Below, piece by piece: positions 2,870 through 11,773 of a stretch of DNA of 32,000 nucleotides. A program made the position numbers and the translations under genes. The notes under the pieces are model-generated. The model was given only the letters and a program-made list of their open reading frames with translations, was not told the DNA's origin and made no database searches. Source of the DNA: a bacterium (GTDB taxonomy: Bacteria > UBP7 > UBA6624 > JBBIMK01); contig JBBIMK010000001.1 in assembly GCA_037444445.1 (NCBI GenBank), positions 1 through 32,000 of the forward strand, in the 5' to 3' direction. Every line of letters starts with the position of its first letter. Position 1 is the first letter of the stretch.

Positions 2870-5317
2870 TCATCGTTGTCTCAATTTCATTTCTACCAGC
2901 CTCGCGGCGACAGGAAACACTGCCGGCGAAACCGGGGTAGAGCGGTTCAACAGATTGGCAACCGCAAGTTCTTCATACTTGCTGTAGAGCGCGTCACGAG
3001 TTCCCCTGGATTCGTTTCTGAGGAAGTAAGCGAAACGCCAGATTTGGGAAGGCGAAACAGACCCCCGAGTAGTGCGGCTCAGGGCGGGAAGATATGCCCC
3101 GGTCAGGCGGAGGAGTCGCCGGGCAAGATGGAGGCGGCGTTTCTCATCGGCTTGCTCCAGGAGCCTCACAATCTCGAGCACTTCACCAAGTTCGTCTCCG
3201 TTGCCGGAAGCCGGGAACCACCGCAACGGGATGCCAAGGACACTAACGCGGTTCTTTCCGTCGGCGCTCTTTGCCTCAGAGAGCAAGTGCTCCAGTTCGT
3301 CAAGCGCCTTGGTCACTGGATACTTTGGAGGGAGCGTCTGAAACACCGCCGAAAAGGTGATGCGGGGATGGTTGCAAACATAATTCTGAAAGTCCTCCCG
3401 CAAGCGGCGAAGCCGGTCCCACGCCATATTCCAGGGTCCGAGGGCAAGCGTGTCATCGCCGCCCGAGTAAACGAGATACAGAGGTTCAAAGACCTTTTGA
3501 ACATGGACGGAGAAGAATAGGGAGAACATCCGACTGAGGGTGATGATACGAGAAAGCGTGTAATCCCTGTAATCCTTCCCCTCTTCCTTCTCCTTGGTTA
3601 ATCCGTTTTTAAAGATTTTGCCGAGGTTGTCCACATCCAGTTTCACCCAGCCGAGCAAATCGTCTCCCTCGGAGTCCTTCGCGAGGGCGTCAAAATCCTT
3701 CAGCGTCTTCCCGTCTTCTCGCAGGGGCAAGGCAACCGGCAGAAAGTAGAACCCTTCCCAATCCGGGGATAGGTCAGTGGAATTCAGCCTCAGGTTGATC
3801 GCGCCCTTTATCGGTTCTTGGTGGAACCTGATTTCGTATCCGAAAGCCTTGAAGACATCGGAGTAAGCATTGTAGTCCTTATGTCGCACCGGAGTGCAGG
3901 GGCTTAAAGTAAGAAACTGAGCGGTTTTCAGAACTTCTGTGATGTCCTTGTAAGACTCACACATTGCGCACAGGTGTTCGTCCTCATTCACGATAGGGCG
4001 GGTGCGGTGGCAGCCAGCGCAAGTGCCCACTTTGCTCTCCTGGCTGGGCGACGACGGAATTGCGGGAGTGAAGATTTCGCCAAAGCGAGCGGCAAGCCCC
4101 AATTCCGAGAAGCGTCTCGCCTTCCATTCGCCTGCTGACTCAGAAGCCTCCTTGAAGCAGTCTTTGAGTTGCTGACCATCAAAAAATGCGCTGATTGGAA
4201 GAGGCACCCAGCCCAGGGATAGGCCAATCTCTCCGGAATGAGCCTCCAGCAGCACCTCGGTAATTTCGCGCCGCAGATTCTCAAGTTCTGCTACCTTACG
4301 AGCCGGCGCAAGAAGAAAGAAGTTTCCGCCTCCTGTATAGAGGATATTGGCGAGGCCGAGTTGCAGGCGGTCAACGAGAAAGCGCGCAAGGATTTCCATC
4401 AAGAGAGAGAGATACACGGAACGCCCTTTGAGGGACTTGGCGGCGCCCTTGCCGGGAACACTCTTAATAAAATCCTGGGTACCCGAAAGGTCGCCGTGAA
4501 CCAGGAGGAAAGGAGTATCTACCGGGTATTTTGAGATCTCAATATTTGAGGTCCAAGTTGTTATCTGGTCATCGGTGACCTGCTCAAGACAAAGCGCAGT
4601 TGCAATCGCCGCTACGGCACGAGAGTGGTCATACAGGGAAATGTCAGGCAGATACCTTCCAACTTTGGTGGGCGTTTGAGCGGGCACAGCCCAGAGATAC
4701 TTCTCAAGCAAAGCGAGCAGGCGTTGTTCAAGGTGATTCCCGTTGAGAGCCTTCAGGTCACGCTCCAGACCTGACGTCAAGACTTCGTATTCATCGGATT
4801 GTGTGTTTGAATCGGTGACGGGAAAATACTCCTCTTCAAGTCTCAGTGCTCGTGCTGGATAGTAAGAGTCGCCCTGACCATTGAAAAGCCGTGAAAAGAT
4901 GCTAATCATCCGGGATTCGGAAGCCTTTCCTGATTCCAAATCTTCATCCTTCTTTCTCTCCCCGGAGGCGAGCCAGTCAGCCAGTTGTAGGATTCTCTCT
5001 TCAGTCGTGGTCGGGTCGTGGTGGTTTCGGACGAACTCAATAACTGATTCGTCCATTCCCACGAAGTGAGCGATGTTTTGCTTGATGAAATAAGCGCCCA
5101 CGCCCGAATGGGGCCACTTCTTCACAGCGTACCATTCCTTCGGCTCGTACTTTTCCCTGTGCCTGTGGGACCGCGAAACCAACTTACCGAGGTCGTGGAG
5201 GAGGGCGGCGAGGGCGATTTTCAAAGCCCCGGAGGAGGGGGTGGATTTGTCTTCTTTATCCATTCTGGCTCTTATTATATCGCAGGATGGGGGGGGTAAG
5301 TCCTTTTTAATTTTCAT
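2870..5317 (-). CDS. cas10: Cas10/Csm1 large subunit with HD nuclease and GGDD cyclase motifs
   Basis: 815 aa. HD motifs LLHDLGK, RNHHDP and LADWLASGERK; Palm1 GDLSGTQDFI; four-Cys module CAGCH...CAMC; Palm2 YSGGDD. ATG 5317 overlaps the upstream stop (ATGA, tcat 5314-5317). An alternative start at MDKEDK (ATG 5263) is possible. Confidence 0.95.
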   Translation of the reverse strand: MKIKKDLPPPSCDIIRARMDKEDKSTPSSGALKIALAALLHDLGKLVSRSHRHREKYEPKEWYAVKKWPHSGVGAYFIKQNIAHFVGMDESVIEFVRNHHDPTTTEERILQLADWLASGERKKDEDLESGKASESRMISIFSRLFNGQGDSYYPARALRLEEEYFPVTDSNTQSDEYEVLTSGLERDLKALNGNHLEQRLLALLEKYLWAVPAQTPTKVGRYLPDISLYDHSRAVAAIATALCLEQVTDDQITTWTSNIEISKYPVDTPFLLVHGDLSGTQDFIKSVPGKGAAKSLKGRSVYLSLLMEILARFLVDRLQLGLANILYTGGGNFFLLAPARKVAELENLRREITEVLLEAHSGEIGLSLGWVPLPISAFFDGQQLKDCFKEASESAGEWKARRFSELGLAARFGEIFTPAIPSSPSQESKVGTCAGCHRTRPIVNEDEHLCAMCESYKDITEVLKTAQFLTLSPCTPVRHKDYNAYSDVFKAFGYEIRFHQEPIKGAINLRLNSTDLSPDWEGFYFLPVALPLREDGKTLKDFDALAKDSEGDDLLGWVKLDVDNLGKIFKNGLTKEKEEGKDYRDYTLSRIITLSRMFSLFFSVHVQKVFEPLYLVYSGGDDTLALGPWNMAWDRLRRLREDFQNYVCNHPRITFSAVFQTLPPKYPVTKALDELEHLLSEAKSADGKNRVSVLGIPLRWFPASGNGDELGEVLEIVRLLEQADEKRRLHLARRLLRLTGAYLPALSRTTRGSVSPSQIWRFAYFLRNESRGTRDALYSKYEELAVANLLNRSTPVSPAVFPVAARLVEMKLRQR

Positions 5318-5742
5318 TTCCCCATTTTTTTCAGGAGGATTTTTTCCTGCTGATGGAGCCGGGGGAGGTAATCCCGGTAGAGAAAGCGAACGGTTCGCTC
5401 ATATTTCAAGCGAATATCTTCTGACTGAGAATAGAGGTATTTGCCAGTTCGGATGATTTCAAACTGGAGAATATAAGGGGCTGTCTGCAGGTCTATGACA
5501 TCCAGGCGGTCGGTGGGAAGGGCTTGAGAAACATCAGCATAGAAAAGGGAGTCAGAAAAGCCCTCATCCGGAAGAATGGCAAGGTCAATATCTATGGCAG
5601 CAGAAAGGTGGGAAGCGGCGGAACCGAAAAGGTAACAGAGCCGAAGGGAATGTCGGGGAAGAAGAGTTTTCAATAACTCCAACCGGTTCCGGATGTCTGC
5701 AGGCAGGGGTTTGAGCCCGGCATATTTTTCGGGAAGACTCAT
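5314..5742 (-). CDS. Minimal nucleotidyltransferase (MNT / Pol-beta-fold NTase domain protein)
   Basis: 142 aa. LFGSAAS...DIDLAIL...DVIDL gives the G-S, DxD and third acidic residue signature of MNT-type nucleotidyltransferases, the antitoxin half of HEPN-MNT pairs. The stop overlaps the cas10 start. Confidence 0.8.
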   Translation of the reverse strand: MSLPEKYAGLKPLPADIRNRLELLKTLLPRHSLRLCYLFGSAASHLSAAIDIDLAILPDEGFSDSLFYADVSQALPTDRLDVIDLQTAPYILQFEIIRTGKYLYSQSEDIRLKYERTVRFLYRDYLPRLHQQEKILLKKMGK

Positions 5743-5754
5743 CGTCCTACACCC

Positions 5755-5792
5755 TACGCATTATATCAGGGGAGGGGGCAAGGGTTGCGGGG
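5755..5792. repeat. 38-bp direct repeat, copy proximal to the MNT gene
   Basis: TACGCATTATATCAGGGGAGGGGGCAAGGGTTGCGGGG, identical base for base to 5830-5867. Flanking bases differ (5754 c vs 5829 a; 5793 c vs 5868 g). Confidence 0.95.
5760..5768 (-). promoter_or_regulatory. Extended -10 box TGATATAAT in repeat copy B, reading toward MNT-cas10
   Basis: The minus strand reads TGATATAAT, a perfect TGnTATAAT. The -10 box ends at 5760 and the MNT ATG is at 5742, with AGGA just upstream of the ATG. Confidence 0.4.
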
Positions 5793-5829
5793 CGGGAGGA
5801 GACAAGCTCCTCCCCTACATAAGCAATAA

Positions 5830-5867
5830 TACGCATTATATCAGGGGAGGGGGCAAGGGTTGCGGGG
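5830..5867. repeat. 38-bp direct repeat, copy proximal to cas6
   Basis: Identical to 5755-5792, with a period of 75 bp. It ends 2 nt before the cas6 stop codon (5870-5872). Confidence 0.95.
5835..5843 (-). promoter_or_regulatory. Extended -10 box TGATATAAT in repeat copy A
   Basis: Same 9-mer as 5760-5768. A transcript started here would begin inside the 37-nt spacer and include its hairpin. Confidence 0.35.
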
Positions 5868-5869
5868 GC

Positions 5870-6646
5870 TCAGGGGTTGAGGGAGGTGGCGCCAAAGCCC
5901 ATAGGGGTTTTGTAGCCGATTCCGCAAAGGGGGGCGAAGGTGGCGAGAGCGGAGAGCATCTTTCGTTCGGGTTCGGAAAATTGCCCGGGGAAGTGGTATT
6001 CGCATTCGCCTTTGAAGCCGATGATGCTGTAGGTGGAGAAAGGGACGAGTTCAGTGTGGAGGCGGTAGCGGCCCACGAGGATGTGAGAGAAGAGGTTGTT
6101 GAGGTCGGGCGGGAAGGCGATGGGGCTGAAGGCATTCCAGCGGTCTAAAAGGGAAGCAAAGACGAGATGGGGGTCGGGGAAGAGGATGCTTTTCCCTTTC
6201 TGACGGAAGCAGGTGGGGGTGAGGAAGTGGAAGGTGATTCGGGTTGCGGGTTCTGCGTGCTGAAAGATTTCTTCAAAGGAGGTGGAAGCGACTTCTACAG
6301 ACTGGATTCTGATTTTGCCGGAGCCTAAGAGGGAAGGGGAGCGAAGAAGGAAGGCTTTTGTAATGATTTCGGGCTGGGGGCCGAAGTAGTGGAGAATCAA
6401 GGTGAACCCTGTTTTTTCGGAGATGGAAAGGGAGCCTTTTTCGGGACGTTGGGCGGTGAGGAGATGTATGGAGAAGGGTTTCCGGGGAAGGTGATGGAGT
6501 CTGTCGGCAAGGGGGGCGCTGGATTTTTGGAGGAGGGTAAAGAAAAGGGCGTGGGCTTCTTCACCGCCGTAGCCCCGTAGAGATAGAGCCTGGAGAGATT
6601 TCAACCGGATCTGGAAGGAGTGGATGGAGGGATTCACAGGGTTCAA
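5870..6646 (-). CDS. cas6: Cas6 CRISPR repeat endoribonuclease (RAMP)
   Basis: 258 aa. The N-terminal beta-strand IHSFQIRLKSL, FHFLTPTCFR and the C-terminal glycine-rich loop CGIGYKTPMGFG are typical of Cas6. The start is uncertain: TTG 6646 overlaps the truD stop (TTGA), or GTG 6637. Confidence 0.85.
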   Translation of the reverse strand: MNPVNPSIHSFQIRLKSLQALSLRGYGGEEAHALFFTLLQKSSAPLADRLHHLPRKPFSIHLLTAQRPEKGSLSISEKTGFTLILHYFGPQPEIITKAFLLRSPSLLGSGKIRIQSVEVASTSFEEIFQHAEPATRITFHFLTPTCFRQKGKSILFPDPHLVFASLLDRWNAFSPIAFPPDLNNLFSHILVGRYRLHTELVPFSTYSIIGFKGECEYHFPGQFSEPERKMLSALATFAPLCGIGYKTPMGFGATSLNP

Positions 6647-7851
6647 GCCTTTGAGGTTGGAGGGTTTTGTTCTAATAAGGCGGTTTGGAGGCGTTTTACC
6701 ATCAGGGTGGCGTAGGAAGCGGGGGGGAGGGAACAGTGAAGCCAGGCTTTGAGCCTGCCGGGATAGAGTTCATCTGGCTCAAAGGGGCTGAGTTGAAGGG
6801 TTTCCGGGAAGAGAAGGAAATTGCGGGGGGTAGATTTGAAGCAGGCTCTTTTGAGCCACGGCAGGCGAAAGGCTTCTGGAGTGAGTTTTTCACGGGAGAG
6901 AATTTCCTCATAAACCTTCAGGAATAGAGGGTCGGAAGGAAGTGATGTGGCATCTACCAGCGGGAGTTTTGCTTGCCGGAGGTAGTCGAGTTTGTCGTCA
7001 GGAAGGGTTTGATAGAAGTAGAAGGAACCAGCCGGATGCTTCCAGATGAGAAAGGGTTCGTCGGGCAGGAATTTTTGGAGGATGAGAATAGCCATTTCGT
7101 TCCAGAGGTAACTCTGGTAAGCGTTGATGAGAATGGAAAGAAGGTGAGAAGGAATCTGGTTGACGGCCTGTGTGAAGGCGGTGGGGTGGTTTTTTAAGAA
7201 GGTGAGAATTTTTTGCTCACTGCCTCTGGGAGTCAGGGGCAGGGCTTTATGCCAGTTGCCCCAGTGGTGGAAGAGGAAGCGTTTGAAGGCTTTGATGCGG
7301 GCGGGGTCTTCGCGAGATGGCTGGGCGAGGAAGAGTTTCAGGGCACCCTCCGGGTCGTTCTTCAGCAGACGGTCGGCGAAGAACCCCTTCCCGTGACGGG
7401 CGCTCCCAAATCGCTGCTCGTCAAAGTAGTTCACCACTCCGAACTGAGCGATTTCTTTCAGGGATTGCAGGATTTTTGAGCGGTGGGCCTTCGGTATGTG
7501 ACGAAGGAGGATTTTGAAGCGATTGCCCTTGAGGAGTCGGGAAGTGATAGGTTCATCGGCGTAGCCAATGTGAATGAGGGAAAAGTTCTGCTGGTGGATG
7601 GAGCGGGATGGCGGGGGATTGCCTGTAATGGACAGGTATTGAACGGTAAGGGCATGGCGGTCTTTTAATCCAGCGTAGTGGAAATTTCTTTCTGGTAAGC
7701 GAAGGTGACGGGAGAGGATGGAGACACAGTCCAGGGTGGTGAGGCTCTTTTTTTCCAGGCGAAAGATAGCGTGTTTTCCAGAGGAACTGAGAGTGGGTAG
7801 ATGGAGAGTTTCTTCTACGATGAATTCTTCGGGTTTGACTTTAATTTTCAC
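6643..7851 (-). CDS. truD: tRNA pseudouridine synthase TruD family
   Basis: 402 aa with a GTG start. PEEFIVEE, YAGLKDRHALT (catalytic Asp motif GxKD) and NYFDEQRFG match TruD/Pus7 hallmarks. Confidence 0.9.
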   Translation of the reverse strand: MKIKVKPEEFIVEETLHLPTLSSSGKHAIFRLEKKSLTTLDCVSILSRHLRLPERNFHYAGLKDRHALTVQYLSITGNPPPSRSIHQQNFSLIHIGYADEPITSRLLKGNRFKILLRHIPKAHRSKILQSLKEIAQFGVVNYFDEQRFGSARHGKGFFADRLLKNDPEGALKLFLAQPSREDPARIKAFKRFLFHHWGNWHKALPLTPRGSEQKILTFLKNHPTAFTQAVNQIPSHLLSILINAYQSYLWNEMAILILQKFLPDEPFLIWKHPAGSFYFYQTLPDDKLDYLRQAKLPLVDATSLPSDPLFLKVYEEILSREKLTPEAFRLPWLKRACFKSTPRNFLLFPETLQLSPFEPDELYPGRLKAWLHCSLPPASYATLMVKRLQTALLEQNPPTSKA

Positions 7852-7863
7852 GGTGGCATGTTA

Positions 7864-7901
7864 GGGCAAGAGGGTGAGAGGGCAAGAGGGAGAGAGGGCA
7901 G
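7864..7901. repeat. Tandem 8/16-bp repeat (GGGNNAGA x ~4.75) filling the intergenic gap between the four-helix-bundle gene and truD
   Basis: GGGCAAGA GGGTGAGA GGGCAAGA GGGAGAGA GGGCAG. There are five G3 tracts with 5-nt spacers on the plus strand, giving a CU-rich tract on the mRNA strand. Confidence 0.9.
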
Positions 7902-8297
7902 TTATTTTGAGTTCCTCCTATTGGCTTGCTTCTTCCTTAAAGTTCCGATGAATGGGTTCAGCATGGGCAAAATTTCAAGGCAACTGGACTTCCTTGCTGA
8001 AAAAGTATCTTCATCAATAAAAATGAGGGTGTGGGGCTTGATGAGCCAGTTTAAGGTTTCGTGGGTAGACCCTCGTGCAATGGTGAGGGAATGAATATAT
8101 TCAGCCCCACTTCGCCTGTCCCAGCCTTCAGCGATATTGGTGGAAATAGAGCCAGTGGAACGGATAAGTTTCCCAGCAATTGTCCGTGGGGAGGTTTTCG
8201 GTGGAAATCTTTCTACATCTTCTGCTACTCGGAGGAATAGTTCATGAGCCTTTCGCCATAAAACCAGCTCCTGAAAAGATTCCACTTTTTTCTCCAT
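7902..8297 (-). CDS. Four-helix-bundle protein (23S rRNA intervening-sequence protein / Avd-like family, PF05635-like)
   Basis: 131 aa. NIAEGWDRRSGAEYIHSLTIARGSTHETLNWL matches the NIAEG...A.GS..E pattern of this family. Confidence 0.75.
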   Translation of the reverse strand: MEKKVESFQELVLWRKAHELFLRVAEDVERFPPKTSPRTIAGKLIRSTGSISTNIAEGWDRRSGAEYIHSLTIARGSTHETLNWLIKPHTLIFIDEDTFSARKSSCLEILPMLNPFIGTLRKKQANRRNSK

Positions 8298-8308
8298 TCC
8301 AAGAGTTC

Positions 8309-8314
8309 ATTATA
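8309..8314 (-). promoter_or_regulatory. Candidate -10 box (TATAAT) for the four-helix-bundle/truD/cas train
   Basis: The minus strand reads CAGATATAATGAAC. The -10 box ends 11 nt before ATG 8297, implying a very short leader. There is no good -35. Confidence 0.3.
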
Positions 8315-8399
8315 TCTGATGTGGAAAGCGGTGAGACTCCACCGGAGCTTGTGTCCTTTGCATTTCCTATTCTCTGAACTTCCGTGCCCTCATCGTCTT

Positions 8400-8428
8400 T
8401 TGTCCCCTCGCTCTCCCTTTGGTATGAT
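8400..8428 (+). promoter_or_regulatory. Candidate sigma-70-type promoter for yjbQ-fadD
   Basis: TTGTCC (8400-8405), a 17-nt spacer, then TATGAT (8423-8428) preceded by TG (8420-8421). AGGAGGG and ATG 8450 lie downstream. Confidence 0.4.
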
Positions 8429-8901: not shown

Positions 8902-10644
8902 GTGGAAGAAAAAATCTGGTTTAAGTATTATGACAATTATGTGAAAAAGCATCTGGAATATCCAGATATTTCCCTTCATGAGTTGGTCTCATCAAGAGCC
9001 AGGGAGCACTGGAATAAAACTGCTCTGGTGTTTATGCAATATCGGATGAGTTATAAGCAACTGGAAGAAGAAAGCAACTGTTTTGCGCATTTTTTGTTGA
9101 AGAAGGGGATTGGGAAGGGGAAGCAGGTGGTGCTGGTGCTGGCGAACACGCCGCACTTTCCAGTGGCGTATTATGGGGTATTAAAGGCGGGGGCAACGGC
9201 GGTGCCGGTGAACCCATTATATACTGCCCGGGAACTGGTATATTTTTTGAAAGATTCTGAAGCTTCTCTGGTGGTCGCGTTTGATATGTTTGCGCAGCGG
9301 GTGAGGAGTGCGTGCGAAGAGGCGGGGATTCGGGATGTGGTGGTGGGGAGTGCGGCGGATTATCTTCCACCCATTCAAGCGTTTCTGTATCGTTTCCTGA
9401 AAAAGGGAAGGGGAGAAGGAAAGCAGAGAAGCGAAGGAGGGATGAGGAGTTCAGGGGTTGAAAATCGGGGTGGGGAGTTCGGAGTTCGGAGTTCGGGGTT
9501 GAAGGGTTTCAGTGCTAAAGAATTGGTGGGAATAGGGTTTCGGCAGGCATTGAGAGAAGGCTCACCCTACCCTACCGGGGTTCAGGTGAAGGGAGATGAC
9601 CTGGCGACATTGATTTATACGGGTGGAACGACTGGAGTTTCTAAGGGGGCTATGCTATTACATCGGAATTTAGTGGCAAATACTTTACAGTGTTCTGCGT
9701 GGTTTCCCGAGATCAGCCAGGGGCGAGCCACTTTCGTGGCGGTGATGCCATTTTTTCATTCCTTTGGCCTCACAGTGGCATTGAATTTTGGGCTGTATAT
9801 GGGGGCGGAGATTGTGTTAATTCCCCGGTTTCATGCCAGAACCCTGCTTGAAACATTACAGATACTTCGTCCACCGGTTGTTCTTCCCGCAATTCCTTCT
9901 ATCTTTTCAGCGATTAACCACTTTCCGAGGATTGAGCAGTATAATCTTTCATCGCTCTGGGTTTCTATCAGCGGTGGTGCGCCATTGCCGGTAGAGGTGC
10001 AGAAGAAGTTTGAAGCATTAACTCATTCTATACTGGTGGAAGGGTTTGGGCTGACGGAAACTTCACCGGTGACCCATGTGAACCCACTCCTCGGGAAGCG
10101 GAAGGAGGGGAGTATTGGATTACCTTTGCCGGATACGGATGTGAAGATAGTGGATGTGGAAAATGGTAAGAAGGAACTACCGGCAGGAGAAGAAGGAGAA
10201 GTTATTATCAAAGGTCCTCAAGTTATGGCTGGCTACTGGAAGAATGCGGAGGAAACGGCGAAAGTTCTTATGGATGGGTGGCTTTACACGGGCGACATCG
10301 GAAGGATGGATGAAGACGGGTTCTTTTATATCGTGGACCGGAAGAAGGATATGGTTATCACGGAGGGGTTTAATGTATTTCCGAGGGAGATTGAGGAGGT
10401 TTTATATACTCATCCGAAGGTGAAAGATGCGGCGGCGGTGGGCGTAAAAGACCGCTTAAAAGGAGAAGTGGTGAAGGCGTTCGTAGTTCCTAAGGAGGGC
10501 GAAATCCTGACAAAAGAAGAAATCCTGAACTACTGTCAGGAGCATCTTGCCTGGTATAAAGTTCCGAAGTCTGTGGAATTTTTGCAGGAGTTGCCCAGAA
10601 GCGCCATCGGGAAAGTGTTGAGAAGGGAATTGAAAAAGCAATGA
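8902..10644 (+). CDS. fadD: Long-chain fatty acid--CoA ligase (AMP-binding enzyme)
   Basis: 580 aa with a GTG start. YTGGTTGVSKGAMLLHRNL (AMP-binding motif), GFGLTETSP, YTGDIGRMDEDGFFYIVDRKKD and a C-terminal GKVLRREL. Confidence 0.9.
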   Translation: MEEKIWFKYYDNYVKKHLEYPDISLHELVSSRAREHWNKTALVFMQYRMSYKQLEEESNCFAHFLLKKGIGKGKQVVLVLANTPHFPVAYYGVLKAGATAVPVNPLYTARELVYFLKDSEASLVVAFDMFAQRVRSACEEAGIRDVVVGSAADYLPPIQAFLYRFLKKGRGEGKQRSEGGMRSSGVENRGGEFGVRSSGLKGFSAKELVGIGFRQALREGSPYPTGVQVKGDDLATLIYTGGTTGVSKGAMLLHRNLVANTLQCSAWFPEISQGRATFVAVMPFFHSFGLTVALNFGLYMGAEIVLIPRFHARTLLETLQILRPPVVLPAIPSIFSAINHFPRIEQYNLSSLWVSISGGAPLPVEVQKKFEALTHSILVEGFGLTETSPVTHVNPLLGKRKEGSIGLPLPDTDVKIVDVENGKKELPAGEEGEVIIKGPQVMAGYWKNAEETAKVLMDGWLYTGDIGRMDEDGFFYIVDRKKDMVITEGFNVFPREIEEVLYTHPKVKDAAAVGVKDRLKGEVVKAFVVPKEGEILTKEEILNYCQEHLAWYKVPKSVEFLQELPRSAIGKVLRRELKKQ

Positions 10645-10666: not shown

Positions 10667-11773
10667 TTAGATTCCCAGTAAAGATTGGTAGACCTGGAGA
10701 GTTTTCTGTGTAAATTGCTGGATGGAAAAATGATGCATGGCGCGAAGGAATCCTGCTTCTCCCATTTTTTTCGCTTTTTCAGGGTTTTGAAATAGTTCCT
10801 GAAGGGCATCGGCGAGAGAAGAAGTGTCGCCGGGCGGGAATAAAATGCCCGTTTCACCGGGCTGGATGACATCCAGGATTCCACCGTGGGCAGAGGCAAT
10901 TACCGCCTTTTTCATTGCCATTGCCTCCAGGGCAGTTCTACCAAATGCCTCGGGTACCGTGGATGGAACCACTACTACATCTAAGATGCTGAGATAGAGG
11001 GGAACATTTTCAGTGAAGCCGGTGAAACGGACGAATTCCTGGAGATGCCATTGATTGACGAGATTGAGCATAGAGTTTTTGTAGCCTATATGGGCCCTGG
11101 CATCGCCCACAATGACTGCATAGAGGGGATAGTTTTTTTTATGGAGAAGCGATAATGCCTTCAAGAAGACCAGATGCCCTTTTCCGGGAGAAAGCCTGCC
11201 AATCATACCTGCTACAAAAGCATCTGTGGGGATGTGGAGTTGTTCTCTCAATCGGGCGCTTTCCTGCATAGCAGGGGGAGCAAATTCATTGAAGTTGATG
11301 CCCCGTGGTATGACGATGATTTTATGTGAGGGAATGCGGAATTTTAACACGAGGTAATCCGCAAGGGGATGACTGACCACGATGATTTTCTCACCCAGCA
11401 TAATGGAGCGTGAGAGGAGATGAGGACGGTAATAACCGTGTGCCGTGGTCAGAAAATGACAGGAAGTAGAGCGCGTGGCAAGATAGGCAACCCACGCGGG
11501 CATGCGAGAGCGAGCATGAACGATTTGTATCCCTTCTTTCTGGAGGAATCGCTTTAGAGGGAGTATGCAGGAAAGGGCGAGGAAAGGGTTTTTGGAACCG
11601 ATGGGGAGAGTGAAGTGCACTCCGCCGATTTTTTCAATTTCAGAGACGAGCCTGCCTCCACCGGAAACCACACAGGGATTGGAGCCAGATTGAACGAGGG
11701 CATGAGCAATTTCAACAGTGCCTCGCTCCACACCCCCGTAGTCCAATCGTGGAAGCACCTGCAACACTTTCAT
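10667..11773 (-). CDS. Glycosyltransferase, GT4-like (GT-B fold)
   Basis: MKVLQVLPRLDYGGVERGT N-terminus and the EAFGRTALEAMAMKKAVIAS (E-x7-E region) C-terminal domain. The start could instead be ATG 11800. Confidence 0.85.
   Translation of the reverse strand: MKVLQVLPRLDYGGVERGTVEIAHALVQSGSNPCVVSGGGRLVSEIEKIGGVHFTLPIGSKNPFLALSCILPLKRFLQKEGIQIVHARSRMPAWVAYLATRSTSCHFLTTAHGYYRPHLLSRSIMLGEKIIVVSHPLADYLVLKFRIPSHKIIVIPRGINFNEFAPPAMQESARLREQLHIPTDAFVAGMIGRLSPGKGHLVFLKALSLLHKKNYPLYAVIVGDARAHIGYKNSMLNLVNQWHLQEFVRFTGFTENVPLYLSILDVVVVPSTVPEAFGRTALEAMAMKKAVIASAHGGILDVIQPGETGILFPPGDTSSLADALQELFQNPEKAKKMGEAGFLRAMHHFSIQQFTQKTLQVYQSLLGI

Follow-up and report, generated by a model that had tools for sequence, protein, structure and literature searches.

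The locus and its genes

The stretch of DNA considered here, the window, comprises the first 32,000 nucleotides of contig JBBIMK010000001.1 (assembly GCA_037444445.1), from a bacterium of the UBP7 lineage. It carries a type III-A CRISPR operon on the reverse strand, in which a gene for a minimal nucleotidyltransferase (MNT) precedes cas10, and it is the origin and role of this gene that concern us. Its open reading frame (ORF; 5314-5742) starts at an ATG and codes for 142 aa. It has a two-repeat element on one flank and cas10 on the other, and an AGGA motif precedes it. An initial annotation, made from the letters alone, had described an MNT ORF with the motifs GS...DIDL...DVID directly 5' of cas10, and the ORF, the motifs and the position are all borne out.

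The surrounding genes lie on the same strand and are readily recognized. First comes the housekeeping gene truD (6643-7851), the stop of which overlaps the start of the next gene, cas6 (5870-6646; PF10040 and TIGR01877). After cas6 comes the repeat-spacer-repeat element (5755..5867), in which two identical 38-nt repeats (5755-5792 and 5830-5867) enclose a 37-nt spacer. Beyond the MNT gene, cas10/csm1 (2870..5263) codes for a clear Csm1 (TIGR02578, 527 bits, aligned from residue 32 of the ORF) with both the HD and the GGDD motifs; the protein has 797 aa when counted from residue M19 of a frame that stays open upstream to an ATG at 5317, which would give 815 aa. The operon continues with csm2 (2503-2853), csm3 (1602-2630), csm4 (520-1659) and csm5, which runs off the edge of the window so that only its 5' part (below ~525) is present. 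A promoter scan recovered no full sigma-70 promoter.

In the closest csm operons (L003-L006; Cas10 36-38% identical), cas6 overlaps cas10 directly, with neither an MNT nor repeats between them, and the genes continue with csm2-5, csm6 and cas1/2. The view that an MNT falls outside the canonical type III-A gene set holds good.

The 142-aa protein is MntA-like

The product of the ORF is MntA-like by sequence, profile and fold. It matches the Pfam Polbeta family PF18765 with 51 bits (cutoff 26.9) and the NCBIfam model MntA_antitoxin (NF047752) with 57.0 bits, 3 below the 60-bit equivalog cutoff. A fused MNT-HepT protein from a type III-D operon (L047, considered below) also scores 57 bits with its MNT half, and its HepT half passes with 70.5 bits; hence, the shortfall against NF047752 is a property of the subfamily. 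The active-site residues G40-S41, D51-I-D53-L and D81-V-I-D84 fit the pattern hG[GS]x9-13DxD with a third acidic residue, and all residues that are invariant in an alignment of the subfamily are retained. A profile of this subfamily recovers the MntA structures 5yep, 6m6u and 7ae2 from the Protein Data Bank (PDB), with a best E of 2e-16. The AlphaFold2 model of the protein is confident (pLDDT 93.8), and the top 17 PDB matches returned for it by Foldseek are all MNT antitoxins from HEPN-MNT complexes (TM-score 0.57-0.72). The assignment to an NTP transferase family, which had been proposed for checking along with a search for closer relatives, is thus confirmed by PF18765, the PDB profile search and Foldseek, and the relatives of known function are MntA antitoxins.

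The subfamily is further marked by a conserved N-terminal extra of ~25 residues (MSxxEKY...PLPxD), and the window MNT opens with the family-typical MS[IL]xEKY. The 142 aa hold a single MNT domain, with no CARF, SAVED or other sensor domain detected by Pfam, NCBIfam or in the AlphaFold2 model, and none of the PADLOC defence models matches it. A phmmer search of 1.84 billion representative sequences returned 907 relatives, the nearest of which are 43-51% identical; several of these are 286-289 aa long and were resolved by Pfam into MNT-HepT fusions. The sole close relative of the window MNT is P0002 (75% aa identity), which is encoded on L001, a 160-kb contig from the Joint Genome Institute (JGI).

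A hepT relic at the junction with cas10

L001 supplies the comparison by which the gene can be understood. It is colinear with the window from 16356 to 5303 (11 kb) at ~80% nucleotide identity, and at the orthologous site its gene order is truD-cas6-MNT-HepT. The cas6 gene is kept there (ORF 9143-9979). The HepT of L001 is intact (146 aa; PF01934) with the motif RNILIHEY, and, as in the window, an ATGA joins the MNT stop to an ATG, here the start of hepT. Homology between the two genomes runs 11 nt past the MNT stop (10/11 identical) and ends inside hepT codon 5, with the BLAST colinearity breaking off at window position 5303, which corresponds to 10440 in L001. The first five hepT codons read ATGAAAATTAAAAAG in the window and ATGAACATTAAAAAG in L001, so that hepT begins MNIKK in L001 and the ORF of the window MKIKK. 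Alignment of the DNA with L001 and BLAST thus delimit a 15-nt relic of the 5' end of hepT in the window (5303..5317), consisting of the ATG that overlaps the mntA stop and codons 2-5, fused in frame to the leader of cas10. Since homology extends through hepT codons 1-5, the ATG of the ATGA is a fossil hepT start, and the overlap was inherited from an mntA/hepT junction. The stoichiometric coupling of the MNT to cas10 that the initial annotation had read from this overlap accordingly falls away.

The same annotation had found no HEPN partner adjacent to the MNT, and this extends to the whole 32-kb window: tblastn with the HepT of L001 gave a best E of 0.22, and Pfam scans of the larger ORFs returned housekeeping genes and no HEPN domain. 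It had also named a HEPN remnant nearby as something that would speak against a dedicated place for the MNT in the csm operon. Such a remnant does exist, in the form of the five hepT codons in the window, and an intact HepT stands at the orthologous site of L001.

Several indications place the start of cas10 at M19 (ATG at 5263-5261). This is where the public Cas10 call (P0003, 797 aa, 100% identical) begins; the alignment to the Csm1 model starts only at residue 32, with homologues, too, aligning from residue ~30 onwards; and in homologous Cas10 proteins the LLHDxGK motif of the HD domain follows 6-15 residues after the initiator methionine, which fits M19. For these reasons we take M19 as the probable start of Cas10 and the ATG of the ATGA as probably not its true start, a prediction read from the sequence. 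An AAGAG Shine-Dalgarno-like motif precedes M19. The 18 codons from the relic ATG to M19 are open in frame, as are an estimated ~40% of random 18-codon stretches, taken as (61/64)^18. Thus, the overlap of the MNT stop with an ATG opening an ORF that runs into cas10 (ATGA, 5317-5314) is real, as originally described, but that ATG is the hepT relic and the cas10 start probably lies 18 codons downstream; the annotation of cas10 should start at M19. Ribosomes terminating on mntA may nevertheless reinitiate at the relic ATG.

Two further features of L001 deserve mention. The overlap of the cas6 start with the truD stop is found in both genomes (L001 7962-9979; window 5870-7851). In L001 cas6 is intact, with a ratio of nonsynonymous to synonymous substitution rates (dN/dS) of 0.27, although no csm genes lie within the stretch seen, which reaches a scaffold gap 300 bp past hepT, and the protein database holds no close Cas10 orthologue; cas6 may be maintained independently of the effector operon. 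A direct repeat of ~42 bp, comprising the ribosome-binding site and the first 11 MNT codons, is present at 9987-10030 of L001 and recurs right after the hepT stop (10862-10905), where it opens an unrelated ORF 270 bp short of the scaffold gap. A tandem duplication or a deletion could have left it behind, or the repeat could be an error of assembly.

Probable insertion of a MntA-HepT module and loss of the toxin

The MNT follows directly upon cas6 in both the window and L001, and so the simplest history is the insertion of a module followed by deletion of hepT. In a common ancestor of the window and L001 organisms, a MntA-HepT module would have entered a type III-A operon at a point between cas6 and cas10. 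A deletion in the window lineage would then have taken out the DNA from hepT codon 6 to a point just 5' of the cas10 leader, and what was left behind would be mntA, the ATGA junction and five hepT codons that by chance are in frame with cas10. A degenerate third copy of the 3' part of the repeat, CTTACCCCCCCCATCCTGCGATATAAT (5274..5300), stands directly after the hepT relic and just 5' of the probable cas10 start; the deletion therefore appears to have taken the body of hepT and spared the cas10 leader. The local alignment by which this copy was recognized scores 26, which equals the maximum among ~3000 random 65-mers of the window.

Taking together PF18765, the NCBIfam MntA model, the fold and the synteny, we conclude that the gene most probably represents the orphaned antitoxin of a type VII MntA-HepT toxin-antitoxin (TA) module, the toxin gene of which has been deleted, and probably does not represent a new component of the CRISPR system. 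Decay in this order, with the antitoxin outlasting the toxin, is what one expects of any TA module. The mntA gene is intact and probably transcribed with cas10, and it has no cognate toxin at the locus. Its residual role would most likely be neutral, or else that of neutralizing paralogous HepT toxins encoded elsewhere.

Constraint on the orphan and the type III-D fusions

A number of points weigh against the explanation as an orphaned antitoxin. First, the gene shows no decay: in the comparison with L001 the MNT has a dN/dS of 0.23, similar to that of cas6 (0.27), and the neighbouring housekeeping genes have values of 0.10-0.16. Nor is there relaxation in the window lineage, as outgroup-polarised lineage-specific substitutions number 17 in the window and 16 in L001. 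The window MNT departs from conserved columns once, its HepT-paired orthologue in L001 three times, and none of the subfamily-invariant residues has been lost from it. This pattern is compatible with a recent deletion and equally with continued selection for a role independent of HepT, which a comparison of two genomes cannot separate. Second, the direction of events is drawn from these two genomes together with the outgroup operons, and the window ends within csm5. Third, the MNT subfamily recurs inside operons of type III-D, so that its placement in type III loci is maybe not accidental.

This last point emerged from a metagenome scan with a 6-sequence subfamily alignment, which yielded 79 loci that were annotated with hidden Markov models built for this analysis. 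Close relatives number 52, which fall into 29 clusters at 90% identity; the figures that follow are raw counts among these relatives. HepT is present in 27 of the 29 clusters, mostly fused to the MNT as a single chain of 282-289 aa with both catalytic motifs. As many as 15 of the 52 close relatives (6/29 clusters), all of them MNT-HepT fusions, occupy one fixed slot of a type III-D operon with the order cas6-cas10-csx7-csx10-(125-aa gene)-[MNT-HepT]-csx7-csx7-...-CARF, where the 125-aa gene is of the size of cas11. Fusions of ~282 aa with both catalytic motifs intact represent this operon family at L047 (5995-6849), L024, L027, L034, L036, L041, L042, L045, L046, L048, L049, L051, L052, L056 and L087. 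Their hosts include Chlorobiota and Blastocatellia, represented by metagenome-assembled genomes (MAGs), and many other metagenome contigs. One of the fusions is a Chlorobiota MAG protein, and the Blastocatellia MAG (L087), which comes in addition to the 6 clusters, shares the slot with a fusion that is 52% identical. The association persists down to 51-59% identity of Cas10 and 62-68% of Csx10, the fusion co-diverging with both, and at L047 the stop of the fusion overlaps the start of csx7. However, the fusion is absent from the equally related III-D operons of Thermoflexus hugenholtzii (L086) and of L088, and it is therefore optional in the III-D family.

The initial annotation had proposed a survey of the neighbourhoods of homologues, with a lack of type III enrichment as the outcome that would tell against its idea; with 15 of the 52 relatives in III-D operons, such a lack is not what the survey showed. 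Its broader suggestion of a link between the MNT, a HEPN RNase and type III systems likewise gains some support from the fusions, but the partner is HepT and neither Csm6 nor Cas10. In the open full text that we searched, MNT-HepT inside type III operons is nowhere described.

The III-D operons also hold a second orphan MNT. At L055 (4379-4804; compare L051 3400-4000), internal deletions of ~365 and 33 nt have removed the HepT core and left the MNT. The resulting 138-aa MNT allele is present on at least 6 independent contigs, one of 657 kb. This parallel loss implies that toxin-first decay recurs in the MNT-HepT family. At L041 (5884-6840) the HepT half loses its reading frame over the Rx4H active-site region and regains it thereafter, reflecting either an inactivated toxin or sequencing errors.

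Together, these observations raise a different reading, namely that MntA-HepT modules are not hitchhikers: selection would keep the MNT, either alone or together with HepT, as an accessory within type III operons, at a fixed slot in III-D and in the gap between cas6 and cas10 in the III-A locus of the window. The modules would have been recruited as a HEPN RNase gated by ATP or AMPylation, and would serve as a back-up arm for abortive infection or as an addiction module protecting the cas operon, with the MNT having in addition a role independent of HepT. Such a role would explain why two lineages, those of the window and of L055, independently deleted the toxin and yet kept an intact and constrained MNT. 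The position of the slot between the cas11-sized gene and csx7, its occupancy in 15 of 52 relatives (6/29 clusters), its persistence across the divergence of Cas10 and Csx10 and across phyla (the Chlorobiota and Blastocatellia MAGs), the overlap with csx7 at L047 and the lack of relaxed constraint on the window MNT all speak for it. Nonetheless, we hold it to be unlikely. Within the III-D family the fusion is distributed patchily, being missing from L086 and L088, and the csm operons closest to that of the window lack the module altogether. In 23 of the 29 clusters no type III context was seen, though some of these contigs are too short to judge. The III-D loci already carry a normal CARF protein, and an antitoxin that outlasts its toxin is what the decay of any TA module would leave. 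Finally, the counts may overstate independence, since the sample series behind many of the III-D loci bear similar names. The orphaned antitoxin thus stays our preferred explanation for the gene in the window.

Far less probable still is a part for the MNT in type III signalling, in which it would nucleotidylate or restrain a CARF-HEPN effector such as Csm6, or modify the cyclic oligoadenylates made by Cas10. The circumstances that invite the idea are the HD and GGDD motifs of the window Cas10, the presence of Csm6 after csm5 in related csm loci, and the AMPylation of a HEPN protein with ATP by MntA enzymes (PMC13000451). Nevertheless, the Csm6 of the related loci has the motif RNNTIIGHGF, which lacks the tyrosine two residues past the histidine that is AMPylated in the Rx4HxY of HepT, and the loci bearing this Csm6 have no MNT. 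This makes it unlikely that the MNT restrains Csm6, as had been suggested at the outset, though the motif is that of the related loci and not of a Csm6 of the window itself. The companion suggestion, that it acts on the messengers made by Cas10, finds no support in an MNT devoid of CARF, SAVED or any other sensor domain and of matches among the PADLOC models. Moreover, the position of the gene is already explained by the deletion of hepT. That the ORF is a pseudogene in decay, or a frame open by chance and without a product, as the departure of the toxin and with it the need for an antitoxin at the locus might allow, we consider the least probable of all and close to negligible, given its full-length frame, family-typical N-terminus, AGGA motif, invariant residues, dN/dS of 0.23 and confident fold.

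The two-repeat element and a flanking gene

The 38-nt repeat of the element between cas6 and mntA, CCCCGCAACCCTTGCCCCCTCCCCTGATATAATGCGTA, holds a perfect extended -10-like TGATATAAT, which is an observation on the letters alone. The repeat found in the nearest csm loci, GTGGAAAT...ATCGAAAC, is quite unlike it. The element is absent from L001, where a 12-nt match, CCCTGATATAAT, is the only resemblance found 5' of the MNT. The 3' end of the repeat finds its complement in the 5' part of the spacer (fold z-score -2.7), and neither the repeat nor the leader has a match in Rfam. The spacer has no target beyond chance within the window, and self-targeting by a mini-array spacer in the manner of CreA or CreR was set aside for want of a target above chance in the same stretch. 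Rather than a functional CRISPR array, the element may represent a promoter or leader that has been duplicated.

On the other side of truD, the reverse strand at 7902-8297 codes for a 131-aa four-helix-bundle protein of PF05635 (the 23S rRNA intervening-sequence protein family). The region that carries it (7860-8423) is extra between yjbQ and truD relative to L001, and L001 has a PF05635 paralogue elsewhere, just past hepT; this looks like a small mobile gene. We considered the protein as a cryptic HEPN partner and rejected it, as hhalign against a HepT profile returned a probability of 0.45%.

Comparison with known systems

The nearest known counterparts are the type VII MntA-HepT systems, such as SO_3166/SO_3165 of Shewanella oneidensis and the MNT-HEPN pair of Aphanizomenon flos-aquae (PDB 5yep, 6m6u-w, 7bxo, 7ae2, 7ae9). 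MntA is an adenylyltransferase that uses ATP to AMPylate its HEPN protein (PMC13000451). The modified residue is the tyrosine of the Rx4HxY of HepT, and this oligoAMPylation silences the RNase. The window MNT shares with these the fold and the GS...DxD with a third aspartate, and L001 shares the arrangement of mntA 5' of hepT, the stop/start overlap and a HepT with Rx4HxY. It differs from them in having no HepT beyond the five remaining codons, in the N-terminal extra of ~25 residues and in its seat inside a csm operon. For fused MNT-HEPN proteins (FhepTA), the only description is as TA modules on mobile elements of Shewanella (PMC13000451). Like them, the majority of close relatives of the window MNT are single-chain fusions of 282-289 aa with both catalytic motifs. 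In contrast, the window has an orphan and L001 a two-gene form, and the fusions found here are in chromosomal type III-D operons or elsewhere, rather than in Shewanella elements.

Among genes tied to type III loci, the cluster C3a174 of Shah et al., which their table labels 'nucleotidyl trans.' (Adeg_0809; 3 members, subtypes B and C; PMC6546367), is a small nucleotidyltransferase family scored as type III-associated, and it may be likened to the window MNT as far as the table entry goes. The same survey found no TA gene pairs (PMC6546367). Csm6 and Csx1 are alike to HepT in possessing a HEPN Rx4-6H RNase site and in being encoded in type III loci. However, HepT has no CARF domain and is controlled by AMPylation rather than by cyclic oligoadenylate, and the Csm6 of the related loci lacks the tyrosine that would be AMPylated.

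A more distant parallel is offered by CreTA and CreR, the TA or regulatory mini-CRISPR modules within cas operons (PMC12737573). As with these, a TA-type module here lies in a CRISPR effector operon, beside a two-repeat mini-array between cas6 and the gene for the large subunit, and an addiction or safeguard role of the CreTA kind is conceivable by analogy. As opposed to CreTA, which is RNA-based and needs Cascade binding to DNA, the present module has two protein partners from a family unrelated to it, the host system is of type III, and no target of the spacer turns up in the window.

Seen in this light, the recognition of a TA remnant removes an apparent new Csm subunit, and the supposed overlap with cas10 becomes a fossil of the mntA/hepT junction. 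At the same time, type VII TA systems, which join an adenylyltransferase to a HEPN RNase, are repeatedly part of type III effector operons, with toxin-first decay in two lineages. The value of the finding thus lies in a lead on the coupling of TA and type III systems and not in a new Csm subunit. If the placement were selected, protein TAs and type III systems, in which HEPN RNases are already in use, could be added to the idea of TA modules as guards or back-ups of CRISPR, for which the RNA-based CreTA of DNA-targeting systems is the established case so far.

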